DNA of 64,000 bases from NCBI GenBank assembly GCA_043803105.1, contig JAZDKJ010000006.1:64001-128000 (forward strand), read 5' to 3'. Shown here piece after piece: positions 2,965 through 26,141 of this stretch. This DNA is from Candidatus Woesearchaeota archaeon. Lineage in GTDB: Archaea; Nanobdellota; Nanobdellia; Woesearchaeales; JAZDKJ01. Both the position numbers and the translations under genes were made by a program. Position 1 is the stretch's first letter. Each line of letters opens with the position of its first letter. Below the pieces are notes generated by a model. It was not told the DNA's origin. It made no database searches and worked only from the letters and a program-made list of their open reading frames with translations.

Positions 2965-3540
2965 CTACCGCGTTATATTCTTCAAGTCATGCCACCATGA
3001 ACTGGAATCAGTACCTTCAATTATCCTAAGTAGTTTTTTCGCAGACTCTGTTTTGAGTAAGCTACCTGCATTGTGAATCCAATCCAATGAGTCTTTATAA
3101 CCAATATCAAGATATTCCTTGTGCTGCACAACATCTTCCAATAAATCAGCATCTCTGGCGATTATCCCTTCTTTTGTAGAATCTATTCCATATTGCTTGA
3201 AAAGTTCTATTGATTCTGCTGCCATTTCTTTTGGCAGCCGCTGCATCTGTTCTTCAAATGCTTGCTTTTCTGCACCCTTTACCTCAAGGTATCTTTGTCC
3301 TATTTTGTGGATGTCATTTAATCTTGCCTCAGGCAAATCCTGAAGCAGGCACATCATTACAACCTTGTAAGGGTCTGCTTTTTCCAGTTTTGCAAGCACA
3401 TACCCAATCACTGCAGCGCGGAAAGAGTGTTCAGCTACTGTATCAGGGTCCTTTATCTTTGCTATCCAGCAACCGCTCCTTTTAACCCTCTTCAGTTGCC
3501 CTGCCTCAAAAAAGAAGTCTACGATGTCTTTCTCTGTCAA
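2965..3540 (-). CDS. HD-superfamily hydrolase (YfbR/HDDC2-like); HD dyad reads QD; tandem paralog
   Basis: LKRVKRSGC, DTVAEHSFRAA, CLLQDLPEAR, ARDADLLE; TTG start. Confidence 0.85.
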   Translation of the reverse strand: MTEKDIVDFFFEAGQLKRVKRSGCWIAKIKDPDTVAEHSFRAAVIGYVLAKLEKADPYKVVMMCLLQDLPEARLNDIHKIGQRYLEVKGAEKQAFEEQMQRLPKEMAAESIELFKQYGIDSTKEGIIARDADLLEDVVQHKEYLDIGYKDSLDWIHNAGSLLKTESAKKLLRIIEGTDSSSWWHDLKNITR

Positions 3541-3544
3541 GATG

Positions 3545-4105
3545 TTATCCCCTTTTCATTGCCACATCATAAAGCAGGTCGTCTAATCTCTTCAGATTCC
3601 ACTTGATAGAGTCTGCTTTTTTTCTTAGTTCTCCGTTGCGCAGATCGAATTTCAAGAATTCCTCATAGATCTCCTGCACAAGTTCATGTATTTCATTTGC
3701 AGAATTAAAGTCTTTGTTTATCCCGTCCATCACTGCCTTTCGCACAAGTTCTCCTGTTAGGTCGCACAGCCCAAGAAGATAGTTTTCATCCTCTACTCCT
3801 AGCTCTTTCGGCGTGGGTATTTTCTTGTTGGCCACAAATTCATAGAAGCACATTGCCTCAACAAATTCTTGTTTTGCAACGTTCTGGATATTCGCGTCAA
3901 ATTGTTCTTGAGGCAGTTTTTTGACGAGCGCTTTTATCTCTTTTATGAGCCCTTCTGCTTTTTTCCGGTCACTTCTCTGCAATCCGAAGATTATCTGTTT
4001 TGAGAGGTTGATGATTACCCTTGATGTCTGGATTACTGTTTCCCTTTGTTCCTCGAATCTCTTGAATTCCTGTCTTATGCGCTCAAATTGTTTTTTGTCA
4101 AGCAT
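3545..4105 (-). CDS. Translin/Trax family protein (archaeal C3PO-like nuclease)
   Basis: RE-VI--SR, QEFVEA, YLLGLCDLTGELVR, LRKKAD motifs. Confidence 0.85.
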   Translation of the reverse strand: MLDKKQFERIRQEFKRFEEQRETVIQTSRVIINLSKQIIFGLQRSDRKKAEGLIKEIKALVKKLPQEQFDANIQNVAKQEFVEAMCFYEFVANKKIPTPKELGVEDENYLLGLCDLTGELVRKAVMDGINKDFNSANEIHELVQEIYEEFLKFDLRNGELRKKADSIKWNLKRLDDLLYDVAMKRG

Positions 4106-4106
4106 T

Positions 4107-4319
4107 TTATCTGAAAAACGAGGTGATATTATTTAAACCTATTGCTAGCTTTCCGGAGGTTGAATTGCCCTGCCTCACTCTAGTCAACTGGTTCAAGGAG
4201 TTATACTCCCTATACTTACCATCACCAGTGACTAAGTTGCCGTTAGCGTCGTAAACTAAATTGTTTTGGGCACAGTAGAATATCATGATGTTGTGGATGT
4301 ATTCAAATGCACTTTTCAT
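4107..4319 (-). pseudogene. Orphan Rhs fragment (remnant of a second Rhs-core gene)
   Basis: 4152-4262 encodes NLVYDANGNLVTGDGKYREYNSLNQLTRVRQGNSTSG, 31/37 aa identical to 6048-6158. Confidence 0.75.
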
Positions 4320-4350: not shown

Positions 4351-4971
4351 TTAAGAAGCAGTCTTGTTTAGTGGTATATAAACCCACACACAGATTATCA
4401 AAGCGTATAACAGTGCAATAATAAAATGTTCTACAGCAGATACTTTGAAATGACTAAGGTTAAGGTCAAATGTTAAGGGAATAAGGTCAAAAGTGATTGC
4501 CGTGAGACATATTGATGCAATTTTCTTCTTTTCTGACCAGGCACGTTGGGTATAGGCTAGATACTTGTTACTAGAAACTAAAAATAAAATCGAGCTTCCA
4601 GACCAGACCAGACCAATTGCAAAGAGATGAATGTTTGTAAAAATTGAGAATAGTAAACAAATCAAACCTACCAGGAACCCGTACTTAGGCTTGGGTTGTA
4701 TTTGGGTGTTTATCAGTCCTGAGCGACTAATAGAGTAAATATAAACAAATAACCACAAAATGAGGCTGGCGGCAACCAAGGGAGTGAGAGTTACTGGCAC
4801 ACTTTTATTGGTGTCACCTAGTATGGATTTTATAAAGATACTTATACTTGCTATAATCCCTAGTGAACAGAACACATAAAATAAGAAGGATATATGTAAA
4901 TAAATCTTTTTCTTCGCCGAATTTTGTGGATGGCTTTTATTTGTAGAGTTATCTAAGCCTTTGTTTTCCAT
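4351..4971 (-). CDS. Polytopic membrane protein, candidate immunity protein
   Basis: About 6 hydrophobic segments, AT-rich, overlaps the 3' end of the Rhs-core gene by 19 nt. Immunity role inferred from position. Confidence 0.6.
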   Translation of the reverse strand: MENKGLDNSTNKSHPQNSAKKKIYLHISFLFYVFCSLGIIASISIFIKSILGDTNKSVPVTLTPLVAASLILWLFVYIYSISRSGLINTQIQPKPKYGFLVGLICLLFSIFTNIHLFAIGLVWSGSSILFLVSSNKYLAYTQRAWSEKKKIASICLTAITFDLIPLTFDLNLSHFKVSAVEHFIIALLYALIICVWVYIPLNKTAS

Positions 4972-6239
4972 TTAATATTACCTGTATCAGGGTTTATAAA
5001 CCAGATTATATCATTTTGTTCTACTGTTCCAGTACTGCTATGACTTATGTCCTCCCTTATGTTTTTTGCCCTATTTGGATTGCTTACGCTGTATCGGTAC
5101 TCCGATGATTGCACCATTTGGGTCCTGCCGGAAGCGAGTCCGTAGCTGCTAGGTTGAGTATTCACAGTAGATGTCCCTACCATCTTGTTGCTCTCGTCGA
5201 GAGATTTGGAAATGGTTTTTGAACTACACGTGACATAAACTTGTGATTCGCACACTTGATTGTCAAGAGGCCCGTTTCTTAAATCATAAATCGGTTTGGC
5301 ATCATGCATAATCGGTTTTTCCTTAGGTTTGAACGCCTCATTATTGTTAGTGTTAGCTTCATCGGGAGTTCTTGCTGTTGCATAGACGTAAAAAACGAAG
5401 GTCACGATTATTAGTCCAATAGTTACTATCGCTCCGAATTGTCCCATAAATAATGGCCAAGCAGGAGGTATCTGATGTCCCGTTTTATCAATATTTTTAT
5501 AGGGGTTATTTCTTTCAAACGAGTATCTGTTTAGGCTTTGCGGGTCATACACATTCTGTATTACTGTGTCTGGCTGTGTGAATTTTGCCCATTCGGGGTT
5601 GTATTGTCTGAAGTGGAAGTCAAAGTTTGAGGAGAGTGAGTCGAGTTCTTTACCTTCGTAGGTGTACCGAGTTTTTGTTCCTCCTGCAAGGATTTTGCCG
5701 AAGGGCTCGTAGAACGTCTGCTCAATGATGCTTCCGGTGCCGTTGGTCACGACTGCTACACTGCTTTTTTGGTCATTGTGATAGAACAATGTTTTGCCTT
5801 TCGTGAAATTTTTGTCTTTTGCTAATCGGGTGCCGTTGTATTTAATTTCTCCGATGGTTCCTGCGTCGTCTTTTGTGTAGTACGTATCGTTTATTTTTAG
5901 GTAGCCGCTGTTTAGTGCTCCGTATTCTCTGACAAAGTTTTCGTTCACATAAAGGATTATTTTTCTTGGTTCGTTGGTTCCGTCGTAAATTCTTTTAACG
6001 AGAACTCGTTCTTCTGTTGGGTGGTAGATATAGTCTTCCAGGAGGGTTCCTGCGGTTGAATTGCCTTGCCTGACCTTAACGAGCTGGTTGAAGGCGTTGT
6101 ACTCGCGATACTTGCCATCACCAGTAATTAAATTACCGTTCGCATCATAAACTAAGTTCTGCTGCGAAGCAATCGCAACAGGTATGGAAATAACTGTAAG
6201 GCAAAGAAACAAAGCGATGACACTCTTTTTCTTGTTCAT
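4953..6239 (-). CDS. Secreted Rhs repeat-associated core protein with variable C-terminal (putative toxin) domain
   Basis: Signal peptide MNKKKSVIALFLCLTVISIPVAIA; YDANGN, FYHNDQKSSV, YEPFG, YTYEGKELD, FRQYNPEWAKFTQPD, NRYSF-NNPYKNIDKTGH core motifs. Confidence 0.9.
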   Translation of the reverse strand: MNKKKSVIALFLCLTVISIPVAIASQQNLVYDANGNLITGDGKYREYNAFNQLVKVRQGNSTAGTLLEDYIYHPTEERVLVKRIYDGTNEPRKIILYVNENFVREYGALNSGYLKINDTYYTKDDAGTIGEIKYNGTRLAKDKNFTKGKTLFYHNDQKSSVAVVTNGTGSIIEQTFYEPFGKILAGGTKTRYTYEGKELDSLSSNFDFHFRQYNPEWAKFTQPDTVIQNVYDPQSLNRYSFERNNPYKNIDKTGHQIPPAWPLFMGQFGAIVTIGLIIVTFVFYVYATARTPDEANTNNNEAFKPKEKPIMHDAKPIYDLRNGPLDNQVCESQVYVTCSSKTISKSLDESNKMVGTSTVNTQPSSYGLASGRTQMVQSSEYRYSVSNPNRAKNIREDISHSSTGTVEQNDIIWFINPDTGNIKWKTKA

Positions 6240-6250
6240 TTTGATTTAAT

Positions 6251-9200
6251 TCAGGTTATTGTTATTGTGACTAAATTGGACTTGGCTTTGATGCTGTTAT
6301 TGGATATTTTACTGGCGTTGATAAAAAAGAGGTAATCTCTCTTGGTGCCTGTTGCGTTGACTTTCCAGGTTACGTTCTTGCACTCGTTCTGTTGCAAGTC
6401 GACGAGATAGGGGTTAGCGGTTGTGGTGTAGAATGGTGTTTCCCCTTTGGTGGTGGAAACTTTGCCTTTGAGGATGTATGTTATGTTTAGGTATGGCTTG
6501 CTGCCTGTTGAATCTCTGGAATTGAAGTCCACGTCCCCACCTGTAGTAACTAGCTGGCTATTGGTGTAAAGGTAGAAACTTTCATTCATCTTTTTCTGCC
6601 TCACGATGGATGTAACATTCCAGAAAATGTACTGGCTGCTAGTTCCGTGTGCGATGTTAATCTTGTCTGCGGCAGTGTGATTAAATTGGGTTGCGTTGGG
6701 CCTTTTAGCCCACGTGACGCCGGTTTCTGTCCAATTATACGTGTGGTATATGCGGTACACTGAGATGTTAGCACTCGCACCACTGGGAAGGTTATTGGCA
6801 TAGATGTGCAAGTGAAGTCTTGCATTTTCAACTAATGCTTCTCTCGGGATTTGTGAAAGGTTAAACTTAATCAGGGAGTACATCATGGAGGTTGTCGTAT
6901 TCCTGACCATAAGCCTGATGTCAGTACCGTAATTTGTCCGATTATAAGTCGCCTGGCTCCTTATGTAGGCATCACCCAGATTCTTGCTAGAAGTGTCCCG
7001 AATGGTGACTAGGGTAGAATGCTCGCCCCATTTGAATGCTTGTGTCAGCACAGTCTCTGCTGTATCTGAGAGGTCAATCACAGCAGTTTTCTTTTCTTTG
7101 CTAAAGAAATTGACACTGATATCCTTGTTCACGATGTTTCCCGAAGTGTCTCGCGGTAAAGCTGTTGAATTGAACCTGCTGTAAACCCTTAATGGAATGC
7201 CTCTCAAAAGATTCCAGCTTGAAGCTATGCCAACATTCAAAGTGATAGAGGTAAGATTAAAATCAACGACTTCCACAGGAAAGCCAGGGTCCTGTTCAAT
7301 GCTGTATTTTAGTGTGTCTTTCAGACTGTGGGCGGACTCTATTTTTTTCCATGTGCCATCTTCAAGGACAAATCTGGTACCGGAGTAGATCGCTAGGTTG
7401 CAGGAGCTGCCGTCGCAGTGAGTTTCAGTATTGGTTGTGAAGCCTTCTTCGATTGGGTCCAAGGTCAGGTTGATACCCCAACAATCATTCTGTCGGCAGC
7501 AGGCTTGTCCTGTGACGTTGAAGAATCTGAACTGGCTGACAGTTGTGGACTGGTTAGGTTTGATTAATGTTAGCTGGATGGTTGCTGAAGGTCTGGAGAT
7601 TTTGGTTACAACCGAAGGAGTGTGAGGCAGATTACTGTACGAGAAAGTACTGTTATATTTGTCCGAGATAGTCCTTAGCATGTTCCCAATCCTATCGTAC
7701 TGGTAAATGAGTCGCTCGTGCTCCATGCTATTGAAATCAGATATCTTTGTTGTGGTGAGCCTGCTGAGATTGTCGTACTGCATTGAGTACAGTTTATTGT
7801 TCCTAGAGTCATTTATCTGCAGGATATTACCCAGGGAGTCATAACTGTAATTCAAGGCTTGGACTGTGCTTCTTAATCCAGTCGTTCGGCCAAGATTGTC
7901 GAAAGAATATTTTACAGCAATGCCATTGGCAAAAGTTTTGTTGGATTGGCTCCCGAATGCGTTGTAGTTGACGGAATCTAGGAAGCCTTGGGCCTTGGCC
8001 ACTTTACCGATTAGATTGTAACTGTAGTTAAGGTTGGTCTGAGGTAAGTACATCTTTATGACCCTATCGGATGAATCGTAATCGATTGATGTATTAACCC
8101 ACTGCTTGAAGGTGCTTGTAACCGGCATGTAAACAGATTCCTTTATGACCCTTAACCTCTCGCCATAATAATACTTAAAAGAAATCGGCACGGACGGCGA
8201 AGCGTTCAAAGTAATGTTAGATAAAGTTCCTTTGTACTGCACATCATAGAAAAATTTGACTGTGTTGTTAACTACAGACTTCCTAACGACCCTGTTTAAA
8301 GTATCATAGACCAAGGAGATGGTCTTGTTACGACCGTCAGTCTGGTTAATTAGGTTACCATTCAAATCATAGACGTACCTCCATCTGGCCATGTTAGGGT
8401 CCTTGAAACTAGTTTTTCTGCCCAAACTGTCATATTCGAAAACAAATAAGTTACCTTTCGAATCGGTGATGTTCATTAGCAGATCGTCTGCTCGATACCT
8501 ATAGGTAGTATTGTAAATTTCTCTCCCGCCCGTAAAGTTGGTGTTGTACTCCCGAACCTTGATAATCCTGCCGTAGACATCCAGTAAGTAGTCAATTCTG
8601 TTGTGGTTTTCGTCGAATTGACTCACAGTTGTTTTATTGAACAATATAAGGATGGACTTTGCGTTCTGCTTCATTACTTTGGTAGTCCGATCAAGAGCAT
8701 CGTATGTATACGAAATATTGGGACCTGGTAATGGGGTGGCAAGACTGGTCGAATAAGGGTCAAAATAGGGATTTTGTTCAGCCTTAATTCGGAACTTCGA
8801 GTCATAGAAGTAGTTTTTGACGATTTGTTTGGTAGCGGAATATTTGGTTTTGGTTTGTACTACGTTACCGAAGCCATCGTAGATAAAGTAGTCTTCGGAG
8901 TATGAGGTAGCATTGTTCTTGGTTTGCATCCTGATTATTTCCGGTGCTACTCCGTCAAAATAGTATGTGTAGTTCTTTGATGGGCTGATTATGTTGTCAG
9001 GCGGATATATTTCTGTAATCAACCTGTCGCCAACATCATAGTCGAAGTAGTTTATGATGCCGTCGCGTTGTAAGGTAAGCAGGTAGCCAATCGGCAGGTA
9101 GTAATCGTAGAGAGTTTGGTGTCCGAGAGCGTTAAGGTCTTGAGTTTTAAGGGTGCCGGTAGCGTCGTACTGGTAAAAGGTGGGATTGCCTAACGGGTCA

Positions 9201-12046
9201 GTCTTGGAAAGTATGTTTCCGAAGGAATCGTACGTGAATTGTGTCTCTGGATTTGTGCCAAGGCTATTGTAGTTCATTACTTTAGTCAGATCGCCTTTGC
9301 TTACTCCAACTGTCTTGTTGTCATAATAGTAAAATTCTTGTTTAACAATCGTGAGGTTATTCCGGCCTAGTAGGCTGTAGTTTGAAGGTTTGCTGACCAC
9401 AAAGGACGTCAAATTGTAAACATAACCAAAGACTTCAAATTTCTCGTCACCGGTAAATTGTGCGTTTCCCAGATGCATAATTGATACTGGGTTGCTGTAG
9501 TAATCGTAAGAGAAGGATGTATTGATGGTAACTGGTTGCGGGTTACCGTCAAATATGGATGAAGATGTTCGTCTTAAGAAGATAGTGCGGTCATCCGTAT
9601 AGTCAAAGAAATTTGAGTCTTCTTTTAATTTTATGCTTGAATTGTCGTACATGATTGTCTTGTATTCTCGGCCTTTCAAGACCTTGTCTTGGTGGAATAA
9701 GTGAGTTCTGACTGATTTGTCCGGGAGGCTTTCGTTTACTTGGCCGAAGCCCCGGAATTCTTGGTCTTGGTAACTGTATTTTCCTCCAGAATAATAGTAG
9801 GAATTCGTTGAAATGATGGAAAAGGGCTGTCCTAATGAGTTGTTGAGGGTCAGGTTCCCTACTATCCAAAGATTGAATCCTAAGTCCCAACCGTTGTTTG
9901 CCAGGGTTGACTGTGCGTACCCGATGTTGGTTTTTCCGCCGTAAGCGTTAGTTACTTGTTTGAGCAGGAAGGCACTGTCAGCCTTTTTGATGAACGTAAC
10001 ATTTTCGTAGCCGGTGCCCTGGTAGGCAACAACAATATCTGGGTAACCGTCACCGTTGACGTCAGCGATCCTGCGCCCGATATTGTAGCCTGCGGAGGTG
10101 AATCGTACTGGGCTCAGCCAGCCTGCTTTGGAGACCCATCCGGTGCCGTTATTGAGTTTGGTGTTGGTGTTGAAGCTTGCGTTGTAGGAGATGATTGTGC
10201 AGTTCTCAGTACTGTTCTTTAGTTCCATGCAGGTTAGGTTGATTTCTCTCTTCGTGATGTTGCTGAAGAAATTTTGTAGGATGTCCACGAGCTTGTCGCC
10301 GTTGATGTCCATGAATCTTACTCCTAAGTCTGGTCTGTCTCCTGGGTAGTCTGTGAAGGTTAGGTTTGGCCTGAAACCTGTGTTGTTGAGCCAGCCTGAA
10401 CCGTTGTTCAGCCATGCGCTGCCCGGGGTTCCGCCTTTGATTAGGTCGGGGAGGGCGTCGTTGTTAAGGTCCAATATTCTTAAACTGTTGTCCTTGCTGT
10501 CGTTTGTTGTCAAGAAGTCCGGGAGAAGCCATTCGGAAACGTTTTTCCATCCGGTTCCGTTGTTTAGGTAGGTTCTTTTAACATTTGGAGATCTTGCAAC
10601 AGTTATGTCTGTTCGCCCGTCGCCATTAAGGTCTACAAACTGTACTCCGAGGTCTTTTCCTTCGCTGTTAACAAAATATTCGGGAATTGGCCATTGCGTA
10701 GTGGAATTTGTCCACCCTGTGCCATTATTTAGGAATACTGCTTTTCCGGTGTTGTTTTGGGAGATTATGATATCTATTAGTCCGTCAGAGTTTATGTCTT
10801 CAAACCTTGTCCCTTTGTCCTTGCCCTCACTGTCGACAATATTTATACTGGCCGGAACAACCAGCATTGAGCTGTTTGCCCAGCCGTCAATTTTGTTGTT
10901 TATACTAGTTCTGTGGGGACTGCCTGCTTTGGCTTTTATTAAGTCAGGAAAGCCGTCATTGTTTACGTCTAGGAGTCTGACCCCGAAATCCTGGCCTTGA
11001 GCAGAATTTGAGGAAAAGGCAAAGTCTGCCGGGACAACCCATTTGTTTGTGGTGTTGTCAAAACCCTGTATTGAGTCGTAGTACTGGAGCCGGATGGTGT
11101 GTACCCGGGTGTCGCCAAATCCAAGATAGGTTATGTTTGCAAGAGATGATAGTGAATTCCAATCATTGAGGGTTTTGTAACCTAGGGCGTATTTCCTCAC
11201 CGGAGTTTCGTCGTTGTAGATGACAGTGATTTGTTTTAGTCTTCTGCTTGTGTCAACAACGTTTCCTTGCTCGTAGGCCATTCTGCGGTCAGGTCTGGCT
11301 TGACTTTCGTATGTGAAGGTGATGAGTTTTAGACGGTCAGTGTTGTACGTTATATTATCTAGGTATGCTGTTCCTTTGTCTTCCGGAAAGGGATTTTGTT
11401 TGTAGGCATAAAGTATTGTGTTGTTATGCATGTCTTTAACTAAATCCAGGTTCCATCTGACGCTATAGTTTCTTCCGGAGTTGGAGCCAAGTAAGGAGTC
11501 TGCAGTGTAGCCGAACCTGTATTGCATCCCGTTGACTGTTGTTACCAAAAAGTATGTTTTTCCATTGTGACTTAAGTTTTGTATTCTAAGTTGCCGCGGA
11601 TTGATTTCCTTTTTGAAAGCAGTTCCGTTAAAGCCGAACTTGTATCTATTGTTATTGATGTTTAGGATGAAATAGTCGTCTCGGGTGTTGTCTAGACTGT
11701 AGTTTACGTGTCTTAATATAGAATTTTCCGATACGGACCATCCTGCTCCCAGAATTCCTGGTCTTTCGGTTCCTGATTGGCTGTTGTATGTTAGGGAGAG
11801 TGTTGGCTGCATGCCTGCGGCACCGGGCGGGACTTTGATGTCATAAGTGTATGTGCCGGCACCGAGGTATAGTTCGGTGGTAAAAGTTCCGAAGGTGTCT
11901 AGTTTTGGCGTTGAGCCGACGCTTGGCTTGTGAAGGTAAGGCTTGTATTCATCCGCAGCCAAGGCAAGAGAGGATAACAGAATCAGCAAAATGAGAAGTT
12001 TTGCTATTCGAGAAAATGCCTTCCCCGAAAAATAGAACTGTACCAA
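6251..12046 (-). CDS. Secreted SpvB/TcB-like + FG-GAP propeller + YD-repeat protein with C-terminal DNRLRE-like and Ig-like domains (no Rhs core)
   Basis: Signal peptide; VPPGAAGMQPTLSLTYNSQ...GAGW (SpvB-like); repeated DVNNDGFPDL/DLNGDGRTDI; EFRGFGQV; many YD/YDxxG repeats; DAYIR...LIKFNLS...WTETGVTW...PYLNITY. Confidence 0.9.
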   Translation of the reverse strand: MVQFYFSGKAFSRIAKLLILLILLSSLALAADEYKPYLHKPSVGSTPKLDTFGTFTTELYLGAGTYTYDIKVPPGAAGMQPTLSLTYNSQSGTERPGILGAGWSVSENSILRHVNYSLDNTRDDYFILNINNNRYKFGFNGTAFKKEINPRQLRIQNLSHNGKTYFLVTTVNGMQYRFGYTADSLLGSNSGRNYSVRWNLDLVKDMHNNTILYAYKQNPFPEDKGTAYLDNITYNTDRLKLITFTYESQARPDRRMAYEQGNVVDTSRRLKQITVIYNDETPVRKYALGYKTLNDWNSLSSLANITYLGFGDTRVHTIRLQYYDSIQGFDNTTNKWVVPADFAFSSNSAQGQDFGVRLLDVNNDGFPDLIKAKAGSPHRTSINNKIDGWANSSMLVVPASINIVDSEGKDKGTRFEDINSDGLIDIIISQNNTGKAVFLNNGTGWTNSTTQWPIPEYFVNSEGKDLGVQFVDLNGDGRTDITVARSPNVKRTYLNNGTGWKNVSEWLLPDFLTTNDSKDNSLRILDLNNDALPDLIKGGTPGSAWLNNGSGWLNNTGFRPNLTFTDYPGDRPDLGVRFMDINGDKLVDILQNFFSNITKREINLTCMELKNSTENCTIISYNASFNTNTKLNNGTGWVSKAGWLSPVRFTSAGYNIGRRIADVNGDGYPDIVVAYQGTGYENVTFIKKADSAFLLKQVTNAYGGKTNIGYAQSTLANNGWDLGFNLWIVGNLTLNNSLGQPFSIISTNSYYYSGGKYSYQDQEFRGFGQVNESLPDKSVRTHLFHQDKVLKGREYKTIMYDNSSIKLKEDSNFFDYTDDRTIFLRRTSSSIFDGNPQPVTINTSFSYDYYSNPVSIMHLGNAQFTGDEKFEVFGYVYNLTSFVVSKPSNYSLLGRNNLTIVKQEFYYYDNKTVGVSKGDLTKVMNYNSLGTNPETQFTYDSFGNILSKTDPLGNPTFYQYDATGTLKTQDLNALGHQTLYDYYLPIGYLLTLQRDGIINYFDYDVGDRLITEIYPPDNIISPSKNYTYYFDGVAPEIIRMQTKNNATSYSEDYFIYDGFGNVVQTKTKYSATKQIVKNYFYDSKFRIKAEQNPYFDPYSTSLATPLPGPNISYTYDALDRTTKVMKQNAKSILILFNKTTVSQFDENHNRIDYLLDVYGRIIKVREYNTNFTGGREIYNTTYRYRADDLLMNITDSKGNLFVFEYDSLGRKTSFKDPNMARWRYVYDLNGNLINQTDGRNKTISLVYDTLNRVVRKSVVNNTVKFFYDVQYKGTLSNITLNASPSVPISFKYYYGERLRVIKESVYMPVTSTFKQWVNTSIDYDSSDRVIKMYLPQTNLNYSYNLIGKVAKAQGFLDSVNYNAFGSQSNKTFANGIAVKYSFDNLGRTTGLRSTVQALNYSYDSLGNILQINDSRNNKLYSMQYDNLSRLTTTKISDFNSMEHERLIYQYDRIGNMLRTISDKYNSTFSYSNLPHTPSVVTKISRPSATIQLTLIKPNQSTTVSQFRFFNVTGQACCRQNDCWGINLTLDPIEEGFTTNTETHCDGSSCNLAIYSGTRFVLEDGTWKKIESAHSLKDTLKYSIEQDPGFPVEVVDFNLTSITLNVGIASSWNLLRGIPLRVYSRFNSTALPRDTSGNIVNKDISVNFFSKEKKTAVIDLSDTAETVLTQAFKWGEHSTLVTIRDTSSKNLGDAYIRSQATYNRTNYGTDIRLMVRNTTTSMMYSLIKFNLSQIPREALVENARLHLHIYANNLPSGASANISVYRIYHTYNWTETGVTWAKRPNATQFNHTAADKINIAHGTSSQYIFWNVTSIVRQKKMNESFYLYTNSQLVTTGGDVDFNSRDSTGSKPYLNITYILKGKVSTTKGETPFYTTTANPYLVDLQQNECKNVTWKVNATGTKRDYLFFINASKISNNSIKAKSNLVTITIT

Positions 12047-12242: not shown

Positions 12243-12812
12243 ATGGTATCGACTTTTAGAGATATACTAATATTTTTCGATAAGATCGGTGTCTATGATG
12301 TTATCCTTCCCTTTCTGCTTGTTTTTACGATTGTCTTTGCAATACTTGAGAAGACAAAAGTCTTCGGCACAGAAGAGGTTGCGGGCAAGAAGCAGACAAG
12401 GAAAAACATCAACGCGATGGTTGCCTTTGTCATCAGTTTCTTTGTTATTGCCTCAAGCAAGCTTGTCGAGGTCATAACAACTGTGTCTTCCTGGATGGTC
12501 ATACTCCTTTTGCTCTCAGTCTTGTTTCTTATACTCATCGGCTCGTTCATGAAAGAAGGAGAGGGTGTTTTCCTACAGGGTGGCTGGCAGACGCTTTTCA
12601 TGATTATAATGTTTGTTGGTGTCGTTGCCATTTTCCTTGAGGCCATCAAGACTGACAAGGGAGAGCCCTGGCTGGAGTTTGTCATCAGGTTTGTTGTCGA
12701 AAACTTCACAAGCACAGCGGTTGCTTCAATTGTGCTTATACTTGTCATCATTTTGTTTATGTGGTTCATCGTGCATGAGCCAAAGCCTAAGGCTGTTGAG
12801 AAAAAAGAATGA
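12243..12812 (+). CDS. Polytopic membrane protein, paralog 1 of 3
   Basis: YDVILPFLLVFTIVFAILEKTKVFG...NINAMVA; ~5 TM helices. Confidence 0.8.
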   Translation: MVSTFRDILIFFDKIGVYDVILPFLLVFTIVFAILEKTKVFGTEEVAGKKQTRKNINAMVAFVISFFVIASSKLVEVITTVSSWMVILLLLSVLFLILIGSFMKEGEGVFLQGGWQTLFMIIMFVGVVAIFLEAIKTDKGEPWLEFVIRFVVENFTSTAVASIVLILVIILFMWFIVHEPKPKAVEKKE

Positions 12813-12823
12813 GGTGTTAGAAC

Positions 12824-13411
12824 ATGGTTATCAGTGGGAGTTTCCAAGAAGCTTTGCAAAACCTGGAGGACCTCGGATTGTCTGATGTACTTCTTCCTTT
12901 CCTTTTGGTCTTCACGATCATCTTTGCTGTGCTGCAGAAGACCAATATTCTTGGCAAGGACAAGCGCAACTGGAACATAATTGTTGCCCTGGTTATTTCA
13001 CTTTCTGTTGTTATTCCGCACGTCACAGGCACTTATCCTGCTGACGGCGACATTGTAACGATAATGAATCACTCTCTGCCTAATGTCTCGATTGTGATAG
13101 TTGCGATCGTGATGTTCCTGATACTGATTGGCCTTCTCGGTGGCGAAGCCAAGTGGATGGGTGGCTCTCTTTCCGGATGGATTGTGATCCTGTCAGCGAT
13201 ACTCGTGTTTTTCATATTCGGCAGGTCTGCTGGCTGGTTTGAGACATTGCCAAATTGGCTTCAGTGGCTGGACAATTCAGAAACGCAAGCCTTGATTATT
13301 GTCATCCTGGTGTTTGGCATAATCATCTGGTTCATCACAAAAGATGACAAGAAGGAAGGCCCGCGCACGAAGTTCATGAGCGACATTGGTGACTTTTTCA
13401 AGGGAAAATAA
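12824..13411 (+). CDS. Polytopic membrane protein, paralog 2 of 3
   Basis: SDVLLPFLLVFTIIFAVLQKTNILG...NIIVAL; GAGGTG RBS upstream. Confidence 0.8.
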   Translation: MVISGSFQEALQNLEDLGLSDVLLPFLLVFTIIFAVLQKTNILGKDKRNWNIIVALVISLSVVIPHVTGTYPADGDIVTIMNHSLPNVSIVIVAIVMFLILIGLLGGEAKWMGGSLSGWIVILSAILVFFIFGRSAGWFETLPNWLQWLDNSETQALIIVILVFGIIIWFITKDDKKEGPRTKFMSDIGDFFKGK

Positions 13412-13969
13412 ATGGCTACTCCAATCGACTTTGGCTTTTTGGCAAAGTTTGGGGACATTTTTCCCTTTTTATTTGTCTTGATTGTTGTCTATGCAGCCTT
13501 GGTTAAGATAAAGGTTTTTGGTGACAACAAGACCCTTAATGTGCTCATCGCTCTTGTTCTTGCACTGATAACAATGCTCTCCCGGACCGCAAAGGATTCT
13601 ATAATGCTCATGGCTCCCTGGTTTGTCTTGTTTTTTTTTCTCTTGGTCTTCCTGTCTATTGCCTATATGATGTTTGGCGCAAAGACTGAGGATTTCTACA
13701 GTGTGCTCAAGAATTACTCTTCTGCAATTTACTGGGTGCTTGCGATTGTCATCATGATATGGCTTGGCTCCATCACCTCAGTTCTCTCGCAGCAGGGTGG
13801 GGTTGGCACAACTACAACAACCACCACAGTCAATGCTTCAGGTTCTGTGATGTCTTCTAATCAGCAGAGCGCTTTCTGGGCTACGCTTACTCATCCAAAG
13901 GTCTTGGGTTTGGCTTTGATATTGTTGATTGCGACCTTTACAATTCAAAGGCTTACCTTAAGCCAATAA
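13412..13969 (+). CDS. Polytopic membrane protein, paralog 3 of 3
   Basis: GDIFPFLFVLIVVYAALVKIKVFG...NVLIAL; abuts the previous stop. Confidence 0.8.
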   Translation: MATPIDFGFLAKFGDIFPFLFVLIVVYAALVKIKVFGDNKTLNVLIALVLALITMLSRTAKDSIMLMAPWFVLFFFLLVFLSIAYMMFGAKTEDFYSVLKNYSSAIYWVLAIVIMIWLGSITSVLSQQGGVGTTTTTTTVNASGSVMSSNQQSAFWATLTHPKVLGLALILLIATFTIQRLTLSQ

Positions 13970-15386: not shown

Positions 15387-17669
15387 ATGGCTTTGTTTTC
15401 GTCTGAAAAAGTATGCAGTTACGAGCTCGTTCACCAGGGTGAGGACACGATCCTCCGGGTCAATTGCGAGGAGTGCTCCCGCATCCCTAGTGTTGAGGAT
15501 AATGGTTTGTGCATGGCAAAGACCATTGAGAAGCTTAGCGAGGCTGGCAATGTCACCAAGCTCGTCTTTGCTCAGAAGCGGGATTATGAGTATGATTATG
15601 CCCAGACCCAGATGCTCTTAGAGGTTGCAAGGCTCTACACAAAGCTTGTGAGGCAGAGGATTGTAAGTTATGATGCCCTTTCCCAGAAGCTTCCGAGAAC
15701 TGGCACTGACGATAAGTATGCTGAGATACAGAACATTGTCTATCATCTCTTGAAGAGTGATCCCCTTGGCGCCTATGTTGAGTTGAAGCGCATTCTAAGA
15801 AGGGAGAAGATTGAGCTTGAATCCCTGGCTGATCCAAACATGGTAAACAGCCAGCAAAAGTACATTTCTGTGATATCCTATCTGATCAATGTGCTGGACA
15901 AGACCCGGCTTGTTACTGTCGCCAAGCCCTATCTTGCAGGCTATCAGGTCGGCGACCGCGACATTTACAGACGGCTTTTCTCTCCCACAATCAAGCCCGA
16001 TTTCATGTATACAAAGCTCATGGCTAATTATCCTGTTGATGGTGAGGAGATGGACAGCTACGACGTAAACGGCGCCGAGATCACAATCTTTGGCCTTCCG
16101 GATACGACACAGGTGCTCTATCATGTTCTTCCACCTGAATTCAAGCTTAGCGAGGACAAGTACGACCTGCTTGATATTGCTAGGAAGATCCTCTCAGAGC
16201 ACAAGCCCAACAAGTCTGAGTTCGTAGATCCAGAGCGCATGCGCCATGTTTTTTCTTCAGTTGGTTCGGACCTTCTTGAGGAGCTCTCTGCCAACAGGGG
16301 CATGAGGCTAAGGGATTCTGAACTTCAGGAGTTGACTGAGATCCTTGTTAGGTATACAGTTGGTTTCGGCCTTATCGAAGTTCTGCTAAATGATGAGAAG
16401 GTTCAGGATATTACGATTAATAGCCCGATGGGCCAGATTCCCATGTTTCTTGTTCATTCTGATTATGATGACTGCAAGACAAATATCATCCCCACTATGA
16501 CTGAAGCAGAGTCTTGGGCCTCCAAGATGAGGATGATTTCCGGTCGACCACTTGATGAGGCAAATCCCATCCTAGACACCGAGCTTGTCTTGCCAGGTGC
16601 TAATGCTCGCGTCTGTATCGTTTCACCCCCTTTGAACCCCAGCGGCCTTGCTTATGCCTTCAGGCGCCACAGAGACAAGCCATGGACTTTGCCGCTTTTC
16701 ATTAATAACAGGATGATGAACCCGTTGGCTGCTGGGGTCTTAAGCTTCGTGATTGACGGTTCAAGGACAATACTTGTTGCAGGAACAAGGTCTGCAGGCA
16801 AGAGCTCCCTTCTCGGTAGCATGCTTGTTGAGATTATGCGTAAGTACAGGATAATAACTATTGAGGATACTCTTGAGCTTCCATGTGACCAGCTGCGAAA
16901 GCTCGGTTACAACATCCAGTCCTTGAAGGTTGCCTCAGCCCTGTCAAAGGGCGGTGCCGAGGTGCCTGCTGATGTGGGCATCAGGACCACCTTGAGGATG
17001 GGTGACTCTTGCCTGATTGTCGGTGAGGTGCGTTCAACCGAGGCTCGATCCTTGTATGAGGCTATGCGCGTCGGAGCTTTGGCAAATGTTGTTGCAGGCA
17101 CAATTCACGGTGATTCCCCGTACGGTGTATTCGACCGTGTGGTTAACGATCTCAACGTCCCGAAGACGAGTTTCAAGGCAACTGATATTATTGTTGTTGC
17201 AAACCCTGTGAGAAGCGCTGACGGATTGCACAGGTGGAGGCGCATCACGCAGATAACTGAGGTGCGAAAGCACTGGCAGGATGACCCGATGGCTGAGAAC
17301 GGTTTTGTCGATCTTTTCAAGTACGACGCAAGGACAGACCAGCTTGAGCCTTCAAAAGATTTGATGAATGGTGAGTCAGAGATTCTCAAGTCCATAGCAG
17401 GGAATGTCAAGGAATGGGCTGGCAACTGGGATGCTGTCTGGGAGAACATAATGCTGCGCACCCAGATAAAGCAGGCTATTGTTGATTCTGCCAACACCCT
17501 GCGCATGCCTGACCTGCTTGAGGCAAAATTTGTGATCCAATGCAATGACCAGTTTCACCGGATTACCGAGCAAGTTAAGGAAGAGTTTGGTACTGTCGAC
17601 GCCAAGCGCGTTTTGTTCAACTGGACGAGCTGGTTGAATAGGACAGTCAAAAAAATCAATTTGAGCTAA
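15387..17669 (+). CDS. Type II/IV secretion / type IV pilus assembly ATPase (FlaI/TadA/VirB11 family)
   Basis: Walker A GTRSAGKSS, Asp box TIEDTLEL, Walker B LIVGEVR, His box GTIHG, SGRPLDEANPILD. Confidence 0.92.
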   Translation: MALFSSEKVCSYELVHQGEDTILRVNCEECSRIPSVEDNGLCMAKTIEKLSEAGNVTKLVFAQKRDYEYDYAQTQMLLEVARLYTKLVRQRIVSYDALSQKLPRTGTDDKYAEIQNIVYHLLKSDPLGAYVELKRILRREKIELESLADPNMVNSQQKYISVISYLINVLDKTRLVTVAKPYLAGYQVGDRDIYRRLFSPTIKPDFMYTKLMANYPVDGEEMDSYDVNGAEITIFGLPDTTQVLYHVLPPEFKLSEDKYDLLDIARKILSEHKPNKSEFVDPERMRHVFSSVGSDLLEELSANRGMRLRDSELQELTEILVRYTVGFGLIEVLLNDEKVQDITINSPMGQIPMFLVHSDYDDCKTNIIPTMTEAESWASKMRMISGRPLDEANPILDTELVLPGANARVCIVSPPLNPSGLAYAFRRHRDKPWTLPLFINNRMMNPLAAGVLSFVIDGSRTILVAGTRSAGKSSLLGSMLVEIMRKYRIITIEDTLELPCDQLRKLGYNIQSLKVASALSKGGAEVPADVGIRTTLRMGDSCLIVGEVRSTEARSLYEAMRVGALANVVAGTIHGDSPYGVFDRVVNDLNVPKTSFKATDIIVVANPVRSADGLHRWRRITQITEVRKHWQDDPMAENGFVDLFKYDARTDQLEPSKDLMNGESEILKSIAGNVKEWAGNWDAVWENIMLRTQIKQAIVDSANTLRMPDLLEAKFVIQCNDQFHRITEQVKEEFGTVDAKRVLFNWTSWLNRTVKKINLS

Positions 17670-17672
17670 AAA

Positions 17673-19814
17673 ATGTCAAGTGCTGAAGTCCAGGAGTTGA
17701 TGCGTAAATACAAGGACAAGATAGACTCACAGTTTGGCACTGATGAAAAGGAGCCTCTGCCTGTCGAATCCCGGGAGTATCAAGAATTCAAGAAGGCCAC
17801 CTTGCCGAAGGCGATGACCATATATGAGTCTCTCTGCAACCAGGCTGAGCATCTTCTTAAGATCAAGCCTGATCCCAAGCGCGAGCAGGAGTTGCAGGAA
17901 GCCATTAACATCTGTCATCTCAATGTCACCCCTTCCGGTACAGCGAGCTTTGCGATTGTCTACCCGCTGCTCTTGATGGTTGTGGGTGGAGCCTTCAGCT
18001 ATCTTGCGACTGGCAGCATGTTCTTTGTTGCTTTCTTTCTGATTTCCGGAAGCTTGCTGATGGTTTTCCTTGGAAAGATTCCTCAGTACCTCGCTACTTC
18101 GTGGAGGATGCGCGCAAGCAACCAGATGATTATATGTATTTTTTATGTTGTGACCTATATGAGGCACACGAGCAACCTCGAGAAAGCGATTGCCTTTGCT
18201 GCAGACCACCTTGCACCCCCGCTCTCTCTTGACCTAAAAAAGGTTCTCTGGGATGTGGAGACAGGCAAACGCGAGTCTGTTAAGGAGAGCCTTGAGACAT
18301 ATCTTGAGTCTTGGCGCAAGTGGAACCTTGAGTTCATCGAGGCCTTCCACCTGATTGAGTCATCACTCTACGAAGGCCTGGAGGAGCGAAGGCTTGCATT
18401 GCTCGATAAGAGCCTGGACGTAATCCTCGAAGAGACCTATGAGCGCATGATGCATTATGCGCAGAACTTGAAGAGCCCCATAACGATGCTTCACATGATG
18501 GGCATAATCCTTCCAATCCTTGGCCTTGTTATCCTCCCTCTTGTGGTTAGCTTTATGGAGAACGTGAAATGGTACCATATTGCCACCCTTTACAACATTG
18601 TCCTGCCGATATCTGTTTATTATCTTGGCAAGACCATCCTTTCGACAAGACCTACAGGCTACGGTGACACTGATATCGCTGAAGAGAATCCTGAACTAAA
18701 GAAGTACCGCAACATCGTGGTCAATTTTTTCGGTGCTGAGATCCAGATAAACCCTCTGCCTGTCTCTGTCTTCATAGGTGCTGTCCTCTTTTTCATAGGT
18801 ATAAGCCCCCTCGTGATTCATTTTCTTAGCCCTAGCTTTGACATGCAGATAGTCGAAGGCGTTGAACTTATTGGTTATAGGGAATCTGTCACGACCCCTG
18901 GCTTGATTCTTGGTCCTTATGGCATGGGTGCTGCTGTCTTGAGCCTATTCGTTCCCTTGAGTTTTGGCATAGGTGTAGGCCTTTATTATAGGTTGCGCTC
19001 GCAGAATGTGATAAAGATTCGTGAGCAGGCAAAGCAGCTTGAGGACGAGTTTGCCTCAGCCCTTTTCCAGTTAGGCAACAGGCTTGGAGACAACATTCCT
19101 GCTGAGATCGCCTTTGGTCGTGTAAGCGATGTGATGGAGGGCACAATCTCAGGCAATTTCTTCAGGACTATAAATACCAACATAAAGAAGCTGGGCATGA
19201 GCGTGCCGGACGCAATCTTTGATTCAAAGGTAGGTGCCCTTGTTTATTTTCCAAGTAATGTCATTGCAAGCTCGATGAAGGTTCTCATCCAAAGCATCAA
19301 GAAAGGACCTGTTATTGCAGCCCAGGCCCTGCTTAACATCTCTCGTTACATCAAGGAAATTCACAGGGTGAATGAGCGCTTGAAAGACCTCATGGCTGAC
19401 ATTATCTCATCAATGAAATCCCAGATTAGCTTTCTCACGCCAGTTATCTCTGGCATTGTTATTGGAATCACTTCCATGATAACAAATATAATCGGTAAGC
19501 TCGGCTCCCAGATGAAGACCCTTGGAGGCGAGGCTGGTGGTACTGCTTCAAGCATGGCTGACTTCTTTGGTGATGGGCTTCCAACCTATTATTTCCAGAT
19601 AGTTGTCGGTGTATATGTTGTGCAGATTATTTTCATCCTGACGATTCTTGCAAATGGCATCGAGAATGGCGAGGACAAGCTCCAGGAGCGCTACATGCTC
19701 GGAGTCAATCTGATTAGGAGCACTATCATTTATTGTTTTGTCGCAATGTTTGTCATGGTCGTTTTCAACATCATAGCGATGAACATAATGGGCGTCAATG
19801 TCCCCACGCAGTAA
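17673..19814 (+). CDS. Type IV pilus membrane platform protein (FlaJ/TadB-TadC-like, two T2SSF-type domains)
   Basis: Multiple TMs; EFASALFQLGNRLGDNIPAE; directly follows the ATPase. Confidence 0.8.
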   Translation: MSSAEVQELMRKYKDKIDSQFGTDEKEPLPVESREYQEFKKATLPKAMTIYESLCNQAEHLLKIKPDPKREQELQEAINICHLNVTPSGTASFAIVYPLLLMVVGGAFSYLATGSMFFVAFFLISGSLLMVFLGKIPQYLATSWRMRASNQMIICIFYVVTYMRHTSNLEKAIAFAADHLAPPLSLDLKKVLWDVETGKRESVKESLETYLESWRKWNLEFIEAFHLIESSLYEGLEERRLALLDKSLDVILEETYERMMHYAQNLKSPITMLHMMGIILPILGLVILPLVVSFMENVKWYHIATLYNIVLPISVYYLGKTILSTRPTGYGDTDIAEENPELKKYRNIVVNFFGAEIQINPLPVSVFIGAVLFFIGISPLVIHFLSPSFDMQIVEGVELIGYRESVTTPGLILGPYGMGAAVLSLFVPLSFGIGVGLYYRLRSQNVIKIREQAKQLEDEFASALFQLGNRLGDNIPAEIAFGRVSDVMEGTISGNFFRTINTNIKKLGMSVPDAIFDSKVGALVYFPSNVIASSMKVLIQSIKKGPVIAAQALLNISRYIKEIHRVNERLKDLMADIISSMKSQISFLTPVISGIVIGITSMITNIIGKLGSQMKTLGGEAGGTASSMADFFGDGLPTYYFQIVVGVYVVQIIFILTILANGIENGEDKLQERYMLGVNLIRSTIIYCFVAMFVMVVFNIIAMNIMGVNVPTQ

Positions 19815-21221: not shown

Positions 21222-22109
21222 GGTTCTGTAGAAAGTCATATTAACCCGAGCAGCCGTTAGGCTGCTTGGGGGTGGGGAGCACGCCCCACCATGAGAAGTA
21301 AAGAGACACTGAAAGAAAAAGCTTACTATTTGTGGAAGAAAGCAGGACTTCCTAAGTTCTTGAATCACTTCGGTCCGAAGAAGACACCTGCATGGAAGGT
21401 CTATCTGTGCTACCTCGAGTACACAGCGCATGCTCCGGCATGGAGAAGGGTGGCTGGATTTATGGAAGATTACCATAGCGAAAAAAGGCATTGGACATCT
21501 TGGCAGAAGGCCATTGCGAAATGGCCTCAGAGCGTCTGGGACGCTCTGAAAGTGGCTAGCATCGAGGCTGACGAATGCAAAGTCGGAGCGATTGACGGCA
21601 CCACACTCACAAGGAGCGACGCCAGCCAACACTACCTGAAGCGCATCGACCGCGAAGACAAAGTAGGCAGGCCAGTTCAAGAGGTGCTCCTGGTAGACAT
21701 TGCCAAGCGTAAGTTCCTGTCGTGGCGCATCCGCGCCACACCCCGAGGAGAGAAATGCGATGTACCTTATCTTATCAGAACATGCCCTGTCCAATTAGAT
21801 GGCGTCGTTATGGACAAAGGATTTGACAGCAATCCCTTGTATGGATTTCTGCGGGACGCAGGAATCTGGAGCGTCGCTCCAGTCAGAAAAGGATGCAAAA
21901 GAGGTCAGTACCGTCGACAGCTAAGAGACTGCTTCGACTGGGCACTCTACTGGCAGAGAAGCATCATCGAAAGCATGATCAGCGCGGTTAAAAGACTATT
22001 TGGCTCGCACGTCCGTGCTCGCACTGCGCGCATGCAGCGCGCAGAACTATCCATGAGACTCATCGCTTACAACATAGGCGCAATAACAATCACGACTTTC
22101 TACTAAGCC
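21222..22109 (+). mobile_element. Complete IS5-family (IS903-like) insertion sequence, 888 bp
   Basis: Terminal IRs GGTTCTGTAGAAAGTC (21222-21237) and GGCTTAGTAGAAAGTC (rc of 22094-22109), 13/16 identical; 9-bp direct repeat GGATTAGGC at 21213-21221 and 22110-22118. Confidence 0.9.
21291..22106 (+). CDS. DDE transposase (IS5/IS4 superfamily)
   Basis: AIDGT, MDKGFDS, Y-QRSIIESMISAVKR catalytic motifs; stop codon lies inside the right IR. Confidence 0.92.
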   Translation: MRSKETLKEKAYYLWKKAGLPKFLNHFGPKKTPAWKVYLCYLEYTAHAPAWRRVAGFMEDYHSEKRHWTSWQKAIAKWPQSVWDALKVASIEADECKVGAIDGTTLTRSDASQHYLKRIDREDKVGRPVQEVLLVDIAKRKFLSWRIRATPRGEKCDVPYLIRTCPVQLDGVVMDKGFDSNPLYGFLRDAGIWSVAPVRKGCKRGQYRRQLRDCFDWALYWQRSIIESMISAVKRLFGSHVRARTARMQRAELSMRLIAYNIGAITITTFY

Positions 22110-25736: not shown

Positions 25737-26141
25737 ATGGTAGTTTTGTTTGATAAGTTTAATCTTCCTGAGGAAGTTCTGGATGTAATTTTTGCTACAA
25801 AGCAGCAGAAAATCGTAGCTACTGAGCTTATAAAATTCATAGTCAAGAACAAGTGTTCTATCGGTAAGGTTGACATGTCACTTTTTGCCACCCAGCTTCA
25901 TGATGGTACATTTGAGACAACAATAGAGGAGGAGCCCTACAAGGGAAAAAAAGTGAGGATCTCCTACAACCGTCGCCAATTCTATGACAGGATCCTTACC
26001 CCAATGAAAAGCATGGGAATGATCGACTATGACTTGTACAAGAAAACATACAGCATCTCTGAGCATTTCAATGCTGAGATGATAAGGATTGGCATTATGT
26101 GGGTCGCTTACCTAAACAAGTTAAAAGCTCAAACACAATAA
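25737..26141 (+). CDS. Conserved hypothetical protein, paralog of 1128..1535
   Basis: End-to-end similarity; AACATTTATATA at 25693-25704. Confidence 0.78.
   Translation: MVVLFDKFNLPEEVLDVIFATKQQKIVATELIKFIVKNKCSIGKVDMSLFATQLHDGTFETTIEEEPYKGKKVRISYNRRQFYDRILTPMKSMGMIDYDLYKKTYSISEHFNAEMIRIGIMWVAYLNKLKAQTQ

Follow-up and report, generated by a model that had tools for sequence, protein, structure and literature searches.

How can a YD-repeat shell be built when its coding sequence is divided between two genes, each of which begins with a leader for export? The question is raised by a window of 64,000 nucleotides (the whole stretch of DNA analysed here: positions 64,001 to 128,000 of contig JAZDKJ010000006.1, assembly GCA_043803105.1) from a Candidatus Woesearchaeota archaeon, in which a gene for a large chain of 1931 amino acids, P0001, is followed on the minus strand by a gene for a small chain of 428, P0002. 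The two lie in different reading frames separated by an 11-nt spacer, and the frame of a third gene, for the membrane protein P0003, overlaps the stop of P0002 by 19 nt. The locus probably encodes a two-gene payload system of the polymorphic kind, exported by the general secretory (Sec) pathway, in which a YD shell of the Rhs/Tc 'BC cocoon' type is made from two chains by a DPANN-type archaeon. An original prediction, drawn from the letters of the window, had placed both open reading frames (ORFs) at the positions and lengths given here and had proposed a split, doubly secreted shell with an exchangeable payload. The genes of the system are the following.

6251..12046, minus strand: P0001, the shell/adhesin chain, 1931 amino acids (TTG start; stop codon at 6251-6253; ORF list and translation)
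4953..6239, minus strand: P0002, the payload chain, 428 amino acids (ATG start; ORF list and translation)
4351..4971, minus strand: P0003, a multi-pass membrane protein of 206 amino acids, candidate immunity protein (ORF, transmembrane-like segments and position)

The host genome comprises 1.56 Mb in 13 contigs (43% G+C; 96.5% complete by marker genes) and holds archaeal small- and large-subunit rRNA genes, which bears out the attribution of the system to an archaeon. It is termed DPANN-type here because it is small and because the nearest relatives of P0001 and P0002 come from assemblies labelled Pacearchaeota, Woesearchaeota, Nanoarchaeota/Nanoarchaeia and Aenigmatarchaeota, with many labelled 'uncultured Methanosarcinales archaeon'. 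The large P0001-type gene is present in a single copy.

Division of the shell between two chains

Domains were assigned by Pfam and NCBIfam scans of P0001, P0002 and P0003, and the leaders of both chains were judged by eye and by hydrophobicity windows. The two chains are made up as follows, all on the minus strand.

11957..12046: predicted Sec-type leader of P0001, residues 1-30 (ending ALA, followed by A), provided that translation begins from the TTG at 12046 (sequence and family hydrophobicity)
11393..11863: SpvB N-terminal domain, residues 62-218 (PF03534, E 5.5e-9)
9977..11029: FG-GAP beta-propeller, about residues 340-690, boundaries approximate (PF13517 and PF01839; profile alignment to TcdB2/YenB)
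7595..10081: TcdB-mid-N and YD/RHS shell, residues 656-1484 (PF12256, PF05593, TIGR01643; alignment to Rhs, Tc and teneurin shells)
6254..7594: non-YD C-terminal extension of 446 residues, beta-sandwich domains (PF24517, NF033679, AlphaFold2 model, Foldseek)
6476-6982: CBM96/DNRLRE module within the extension, residues 1689-1857 (PF24517, E 1.9e-24; NF033679)
6168..6239: predicted Sec-type leader of P0002, residues 1-24 (ending AIA, followed by S; sequence and a modelled helix at residues 2-26)
5475..6167: last YD-shell part and Rhs core plug of P0002, residues 25-255 (TIGR03696, conserved columns, TccC3 alignment, AlphaFold model, Foldseek)

P0001, which a gene caller on record (P0123) begins 19 codons later, opens with its SpvB domain and an FG-GAP propeller (repeat matches at about 417-680), passes through TcdB_toxin_midN (PF12256, residues 656-781) and continues into a YD/RHS shell whose best stretches lie at 939-969 and 1205-1238. 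The last YD-type stretch ends at ...YSNLPHTPSVV, near residue 1484, where the family consensus reads YxYxxxAHAP and H1475 is at least 90% conserved. No Rhs core was matched in P0001 by Pfam or NCBIfam, nor, at E up to 1e-3, by a hidden Markov model built from the conserved part of 114 short relatives of P0002 (the core HMM). Residues 1240-1484 were also considered as a degenerate core and rejected as such: the core HMM does not match them, and long single-chain relatives keep this stretch ahead of their core.

Beyond the shell the chain turns, as had been predicted, to adhesion-type domains, in the form of the CBM96/DNRLRE-bearing extension of 446 residues. Modelled with 21 relatives in AlphaFold2, the extension is all-beta with a predicted local distance difference test (pLDDT) value of 83.1, and Foldseek matches its central module best to a chondroitin-sulfate-binding carbohydrate-binding module (CBM; 8wab, E 2.9e-10, TMt 0.75), another top match being the alginate-binding CBM 7vbo; these fold matches agree with the family assignment. 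The extension varies among the large relatives, of which P0188 (1478 amino acids) stops at the break and others carry different extensions.

P0002 begins with a basic and hydrophobic leader and then takes up the YD pattern with NLVYDANGNL. Its YD-repeat part spans about 230 amino acids (an RHS repeat match at 31-61 falls below the cut-off), and an Rhs_assc_core domain (TIGR03696, E 3.6e-14) lies at 177-255. The AlphaFold model, with pLDDT mostly above 85 over residues 28-220, superposes in Foldseek on the shell ends of TcdB2-TccC3 (E 5e-8), RhsA, Tse15, teneurins and YenC2. Within the core, which holds the motif PxxxxDxxG-H, R211 and D251 do not vary among 113 sequences, and D224 shows at least 90% conservation. 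The aspartates of QPD and VDxxG in the short family align by HMMER to two aspartates of TccC3 (...SSDP...LLDPDG) that stand 23 residues apart, the same spacing as D651 and D674, whose autoprotease roles in TccC3 have been described (PMC7861908; PMC9935623). R211, D224 and D251 are predicted to be the residues of an aspartyl autoprotease that cuts after H255. Among the 120 short relatives listed from a total of 476, the core motif occurs in 115, the residue before the predicted cut being histidine in 60 of these and lysine in 38. The loops of the core module appear to tolerate whole-domain insertions, laminin-G-type domains (PF13385) being carried within or ahead of it by P0098, P0104 and P0112.

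The collinearity of the two chains with one shell is seen in single-chain relatives of the family (25-41% identity). In BLAST comparisons, P0217 matches P0001 residues 56-1480 up to its own residue 1642 and P0002 residues 21-254 from 1639 onward; P0240 matches P0001 56-1484 up to 1542 and P0002 30-255 from 1544. Four further chains, P0178, P0190, P0191 and P0196, have a spacer of 75-110 residues at the joining point. Because single-chain relatives join there, the step from ...YSNLPHTPSVV to YDANGN is taken as the true continuation point, exactly where the original prediction had put it, and on this comparison of sequences P0001 and P0002 are together one shell. In a second single-chain type (P0165-P0176 and P0189; 1624-1863 amino acids, 35-41% identical), P0001 is fused at about residue 1255, in some cases up to about 1424, to P0002 at about residue 35, with some 240 fewer shell residues. 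The core HMM finds a core within the shell-bearing chain in 46 of 121 long relatives, and in none of P0001 and its 42 closest relatives (P0123-P0164).

Modelling of the complex had been suggested as a means of learning whether the shell closes. When P0001 residues 745-1495 and P0002 residues 25-258 were modelled together, each with its family alignment, the score was 0.89 in three runs and 0.00 in the best of three controls; the mark applied to such models is reached by 58 of 80 solved complexes and by 2 of 110 mismatched pairs. The three runs share at least 97% of contacts, the partner pLDDT is at least 88, and the modelled interface is formed by P0001 1153-1482, including the last shell residues, and P0002 25-248. 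The model thus supports docking of P0002 on the shell end of P0001. Its tightest pairs include P0001 1237-1239 with P0002 33-34, and the short single-chain relatives join near these pairs, as though one turn of the spiral might have been removed.

Spread, pairing and history of the family

From 4818 candidates, 476 were taken as relatives of the short protein at E up to 0.001; the large protein has 336 relatives out of 7998 candidates. The 120 short relatives listed are mostly 390-490 amino acids in length and are conserved, at 38-57% identity, over about the first 60%. A hydrophobic leader window is found in 93 of the 95 short relatives that have at least 18 amino acids ahead of the first YD motif, and a hydrophobic N-terminal window in 53 of 58 aligned large relatives, so that secretion-type leaders on both chains, as first proposed for the window, are a conserved property. 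The survey of gene arrangement covered 76 loci from species-representative genomes and the window itself (77 sources), and contained 59 full-length core genes without a shell fusion. A shell gene lies directly upstream of 27 of these, overlapping by 4 nt in 20, and no more than 900 nt downstream of a further 11. The split with its leaders recurs in many DPANN-type genomes, and the layout is not confined to archaea: a few bacteria share it, their short proteins being likewise leader-bearing and next to a large shell gene at several loci, with the core gene preceding the shell gene at L058, L064, L065, L069, L070 and L073.

The exchangeability proposed for the small chain accords with the behaviour of these genes in the relatives. 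At least two core-bearing ORFs occur in 33 of the 77 sources, payload arrays are found in L011, L016, L026 and L028, and 35 5'-truncated core ORFs lie internal to relatives' loci. The tips of 114 short relatives (at least 40 residues each) fall into 68 similarity clusters, the largest of 16 members, and the tip of the window stands alone. Truncated spare cassettes are thus a feature of the relatives; the window holds only a 5' remnant.

4146..4289, minus strand: payload-gene remnant, 5' part (resembles P0002 residues 19-66)

The remnant is 71% identical to those residues of P0002, has neither leader nor start and ends after the first repeats. About 115 nt of its DNA are some 80% identical to the P0002 gene, and because the differences are mostly at third codon positions it is regarded as the relic of another allele and not as a recent duplication. 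A second payload relic, an ORF of 82 amino acids on another contig (L004 1402-1650, minus strand; G000:C2 ~118942-119067), resembles P0002 residues 45-86 (48% identity) and has no shell gene nearby. Separately, genes for 702-735 amino acids at L025 (7884-9992), L026 (7797-10004) and L048 (9405-11588) encode the last third of a shell, like P0001 at about 1225-1480, together with an extension, each lying directly ahead of a core gene, with a complete single-chain gene upstream of it; the shell end and arm, therefore, also have their spare copies.

At 14 loci (L017, L019, L020, L021, L023, L025, L030, L039, L040, L041, L043, L045, L051 and L074) a conserved secreted protein of 341-702 amino acids, laminin-G/concanavalin-like by a reading of its sequence and not by family search, is encoded directly upstream of the shell gene (e.g., L017 2839-4230), and in 10 of these Woesearchaeota-type loci there is a second conserved upstream gene. 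The laminin-G-like gene may be a separate counterpart of the extension that is fused to the shell in the window.

A FastTree phylogeny built from 115 shell segments, with a midpoint root that serves only the drawing, places single-chain proteins on all of its deep branches. In one clade of 85 rows, 70 chains lack a core, and the 15 that have one are nested within the clade at several points. At a minimum, 11 changes between the split and fused states are needed, of which at least 7 are forced by well-supported branches. With the root not established, this suggests that division of the chain is old in the clade and has been reversed several times.

Variable tips and kinship with known cocoons

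The part of P0002 beyond the predicted cut consists of a hydrophobic helix and a polar tail.

4956..5474, minus strand: variable tip, residues 256-428 (hydrophobic helix, then a polar, poorly modelled tail)
5370-5459, minus strand: hydrophobic helix of the tip, about residues 261-290 (modelled helix 269-288)

Pfam gave nothing for the tip at E up to 0.001, the sole sub-threshold match being NEDD4_Bsd2 (E 0.17), and its look-alikes in the Atlas reached at most 0.79, with structural TM-scores of at most 0.31. Among the 114 tips, 75 have one or two transmembrane (TM)-like segments, the first beginning within 30 residues of the cut in 65 of the 75; the other 39 have none. At least two cysteines occur in the last 40 residues of 39 of the 114. 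A test of charge bias across the tip helix gave no topology signal: of 46 cases, lysine plus arginine was more frequent after the helix in 15, level in 9 and less frequent in 22.

P0003 has about four hydrophobic TM-like segments and matches nothing in Pfam, NCBIfam or PADLOC, the last of which is equally without a match for P0002. Of 57 full core genes, 45 have a small ORF after them on the same strand; 35 of these 45 ORFs contain two or more TM-like segments, as against 287 of 2143 background ORFs of similar size. From its position and predicted topology, P0003 is a candidate immunity protein, and we infer that the payload which it would guard against is a toxin.

The closest parallel to the shell is the BC cocoon of Tc toxins, such as TcdB2-TccC3 of Photorhabdus and YenB-YenC2 of Yersinia entomophaga, which has the same SpvB domain, FG-GAP propeller, TcdB-mid-N and YD shell spread over two polypeptides, and a core plug with an arginine and two aspartates, PxxxxDxxG and a variable C-terminal part past the cut (PMC7861908). 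The Tc chains escaped PDB searches made with P0001 and P0002 as single sequences, and family profiles were needed to reach them. The large-family profile matches TcdB2-TccC3 (E 2.2e-42) and YenB (8.4e-25) across the propeller region, its positions 277-746 aligning to TcdB2 327-790 and YenB 338-796, while positions 1315-1436 align within the TcC chains (TccC2 263-418; YenC2 277-435); the short-family profile aligns to YenC2 589-761 and to the end of TccC3. These alignments locate the archaeal break about 450 residues into the part equivalent to TcC, not at the boundary between the TcB C-terminus and the TcC N-terminus, so that P0002 corresponds to only about the last 230 residues, roughly the last third, of the TcC shell part. 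By arithmetic from the profile alignment, the archaeal shell past the propeller is some 400 residues shorter overall. The archaeal system differs further in having a leader on each chain and a CBM-bearing extension of 446 residues at the break.

It had been held that known SpvB-FG-GAP-YD shells always run on in one chain. This does not stand, as Tc toxins have TcB and TcC as distinct subunits, and B-C fusions occur naturally as well (PMC7861908). Single-chain 'TcdB/TcaC-type' polymorphic toxins with a signal peptide, SpvB, propeller, RHS and a C-terminal toxin are known as well, including from Euryarchaeota (Zhang et al., 2012; PMC3482391); the archaeal system shares their modules, order and signal peptide, and differs from them and from B-C fusions in that the chain is divided, with a leader on each part and a domain extension that closes the first. 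The two-chain cocoon as such has therefore already been described; the archaeal system departs from it in where the chain is broken, in the leader that each chain bears and in the extra domains attached where the break falls. The claim of an undescribed archaeal architecture holds in part: no paper on the family was found in the literature searched (DPANN and archaeal Rhs, YD, SpvB, Tc and polymorphic toxins; supplements outside the scope), and the accessible text of PMC9723730 and PMC6393860 does not mention it; against the claim stand the Tc precedent and the bacterial loci of the same layout. The authors of PMC7861908 screened 1,966 archaeal genomes for TcC, archaea being mentioned, in the text of that paper available here, in the methods only.

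Three other known systems are close to this one. WapA of Gram-positive bacteria is exported by way of a Sec signal at its N-terminus, has a shell that must fold outside the membrane and carries DNRLRE in its surface-binding part, the DNRLRE domain of Streptococcus suis WapA lying within a wall-binding fragment (PMC12704120). Leaders and DNRLRE are common to WapA and the archaeal system, whereas WapA is a single chain with N-terminal DNRLRE/LysM domains and neither SpvB nor propeller, the archaeal DNRLRE module comes after the shell of a two-chain system, and B. subtilis WapA delivers tRNase toxins. Rhs effectors of type VI secretion systems (T6SS) resemble the archaeal proteins in their YD cocoon and core autoprotease, with structural matches to Tse5, RhsA, Tse15 and RhsP, and include Tse5, described as a pore-forming toxin (PMC10684867); in contrast, each of them consists of one chain, is put together in the cytoplasm and is fired through PAAR/VgrG by the T6SS. 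No match to T6SS sheath or PAAR families was found in the host genome. Among solved structures, the short-family profile matches mosquito SGS1 best (PDB 8fjp, E 3.1e-14), and the alignment continues past the core into the hydrophobic stretch. In SGS1, the autoprotease site is followed at once by predicted TM helices that are folded inside a Tc-like shell (PMC9935623), which provides a precedent for hydrophobic cargo within a shell, albeit in a eukaryotic single chain of 3364 amino acids that lacks a classical signal peptide, is predicted to have six TM helices and bears other receptor domains.

Competing readings, neighbourhood and meaning

In the reading that we favour, both chains would be exported by Sec. 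P0001 would contribute most of the shell together with its SpvB domain and propeller gate and, at the shell end, an outward glycan-binding arm (CBM96/DNRLRE), and P0002 would complete the shell outside the membrane with its last 230 or so shell residues and a core plug that bears the aspartyl autoprotease. Once the core had cut behind H255, the variable tip would remain enclosed by the shell, where this membrane-inserting cargo would be kept soluble as in mosquito SGS1. The arm would then dock on another cell, the tip would insert into the membrane of that cell, and P0003 would protect the producer.

Several observations weigh against this proposal. A very hydrophobic helix that follows a Sec-exported domain normally stops transfer and stays in the membrane of the producer, and entry of such a tip into a shell that folds externally is hard to explain. 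Residues 293-408 of the tip are modelled mostly at pLDDT below 50; relatives of the P0002 tip were sought in a word-index search and in full with HMMER over 1.84 billion representatives, which returned P0002 only; and Pfam found no known toxin family in the tips of 113 short members, its matches being TEN_YD-shell (20) and RHS (6). Of the 59 core genes, 21 have no adjacent shell gene; most of the 21 are second or third copies in arrays or sit close to contig ends, but five have 6 kb or more of sequence to either side. The order of genes in the window is shell then core, and the closest relatives that share its extension (L007, L008, L009 and L024) have core then shell. Finally, the score of the modelled complex may reflect likeness to, or memory of, solved Rhs and Tc shells, which tempers the support that it lends to binding of the two chains.

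The stop-transfer problem keeps alive a rival reading in which nothing is delivered and P0002 is a type I membrane protein of the archaeon, its helix anchoring the shell and glycan arm and its tail lying in the cytoplasm, so that the whole would be a teneurin-like attachment organ. A leader, an exported domain and a hydrophobic helix are the textbook layout of such a protein, with Sec transfer halted at the helix, and P0002 has that layout. The position of the TM-like segments, within 30 residues of the core in 65 of the 75 tips that have them, would suit an anchor, as would the lack of known toxin domains among the 113 members and the affinity of the solved CBMs closest to the large chain for acidic polysaccharides. 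An anchor, however, would leave unexplained the 68 tip clusters, the truncated spare copies and the membrane-protein gene that follows most copies, and cleavage by an autoprotease whose residues are conserved would sever it; the 39 tips that lack a TM-like segment and the charge-bias test also speak against it, and in SGS1 helices of this kind sit within the shell (PMC9935623). We regard this reading as rather unlikely, yet as one to be taken seriously.

Much less likely is an ordinary Tc (ABC) toxin whose TcB and TcC are encoded here and whose TcA lies elsewhere in the genome. The SpvB, propeller, TcdB-mid-N and RHS domains of P0001, the Rhs core of P0002 and the best profile matches, to TcdB2-TccC3 and YenB, are what it would lead one to expect, whereas the break is not at the TcB/TcC boundary, and both chains have leaders, Tc toxins of Yersinia entomophaga being released by lysis (PMC10847048). 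The TcA families PF18276 and PF03538 had no match in the 96.5%-complete genome, a weak negative in that 14 control genomes were equally silent and the search had no positive control; to that extent the claim that neither TcA nor a T6SS accompanies the system has held beyond the window. The thought that a single Rhs gene has been broken by decay or misassembly, leaving the small ORF as a pseudogene piece, is suggested by two adjacent ORFs on one strand in different frames with a truncated copy just downstream, and is scarcely credible when the two shell parts are separated by a leader and by 446 folded non-YD residues, when dozens of genomes repeat the arrangement, a separate start and leader included, and when the short and long relatives number in the hundreds.

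The surroundings of the system hold several further features. Two paralogous small genes of no known family (1116-1535 and 25737-26141, both plus strand; 60% identical over 128 amino acids) flank a stretch of 24 kb that contains the shell system, a DDE transposase gene (21291-22106, PF01609) and a gene for a family-less protein of 1088 amino acids (22113-25379); the bracketed stretch could be an island. Divergent from the shell gene, three consecutive genes at 12243-13969 (plus strand) encode multi-pass membrane proteins of 185-195 amino acids with no family above cut-off. Some 3 kb from the shell gene, at 15387-19814 (plus strand), a T2SSE-type ATPase of 760 amino acids (PF00437) is followed by a polytopic membrane protein of 713, which together look like an assembly pair of the type IV pilus/archaellum type. 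Just downstream of the system lie tandem paralogous HD-domain (YfbR-like) genes (2378-2956 and 2965-3540, both minus strand), adjoined by a translin-family gene (3545-4105). Elsewhere in the genome, the small-subunit rRNA match (L001 1501-3098; G000:C8:150105-151702) spans 1598 nt against 1478 model positions, which suggests an insertion in that gene.

The prevailing view of DPANN archaea is that they live fixed to other microbes, and their effects on these partners are little known. A widespread, fast-diversifying secreted shell with membrane-seeking tips would be a concrete candidate for a means of contact between them. As a tentative extension of the preferred reading, DPANN-type archaea, whose sole export route would be Sec and which would lack an injection machine, may assemble a YD cocoon extracellularly from two chains exported separately, of which the constant polysaccharide-binding shell would dock on the surface of another cell and the swappable plug would bring along a membrane peptide able to insert itself; neighbour or host cells would then be breached or killed by minimal means, with no machine involved, and the shell would be divided in a distinct way, derived independently. 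For the wider family, the YD cocoon would be divisible at a second site and perhaps assembled after export, which bears on how such shells fold and how cargo is loaded into them. The tips form a pool of more than 60 unrelated short sequences without a known family and, if active, would be new membrane-acting peptides.

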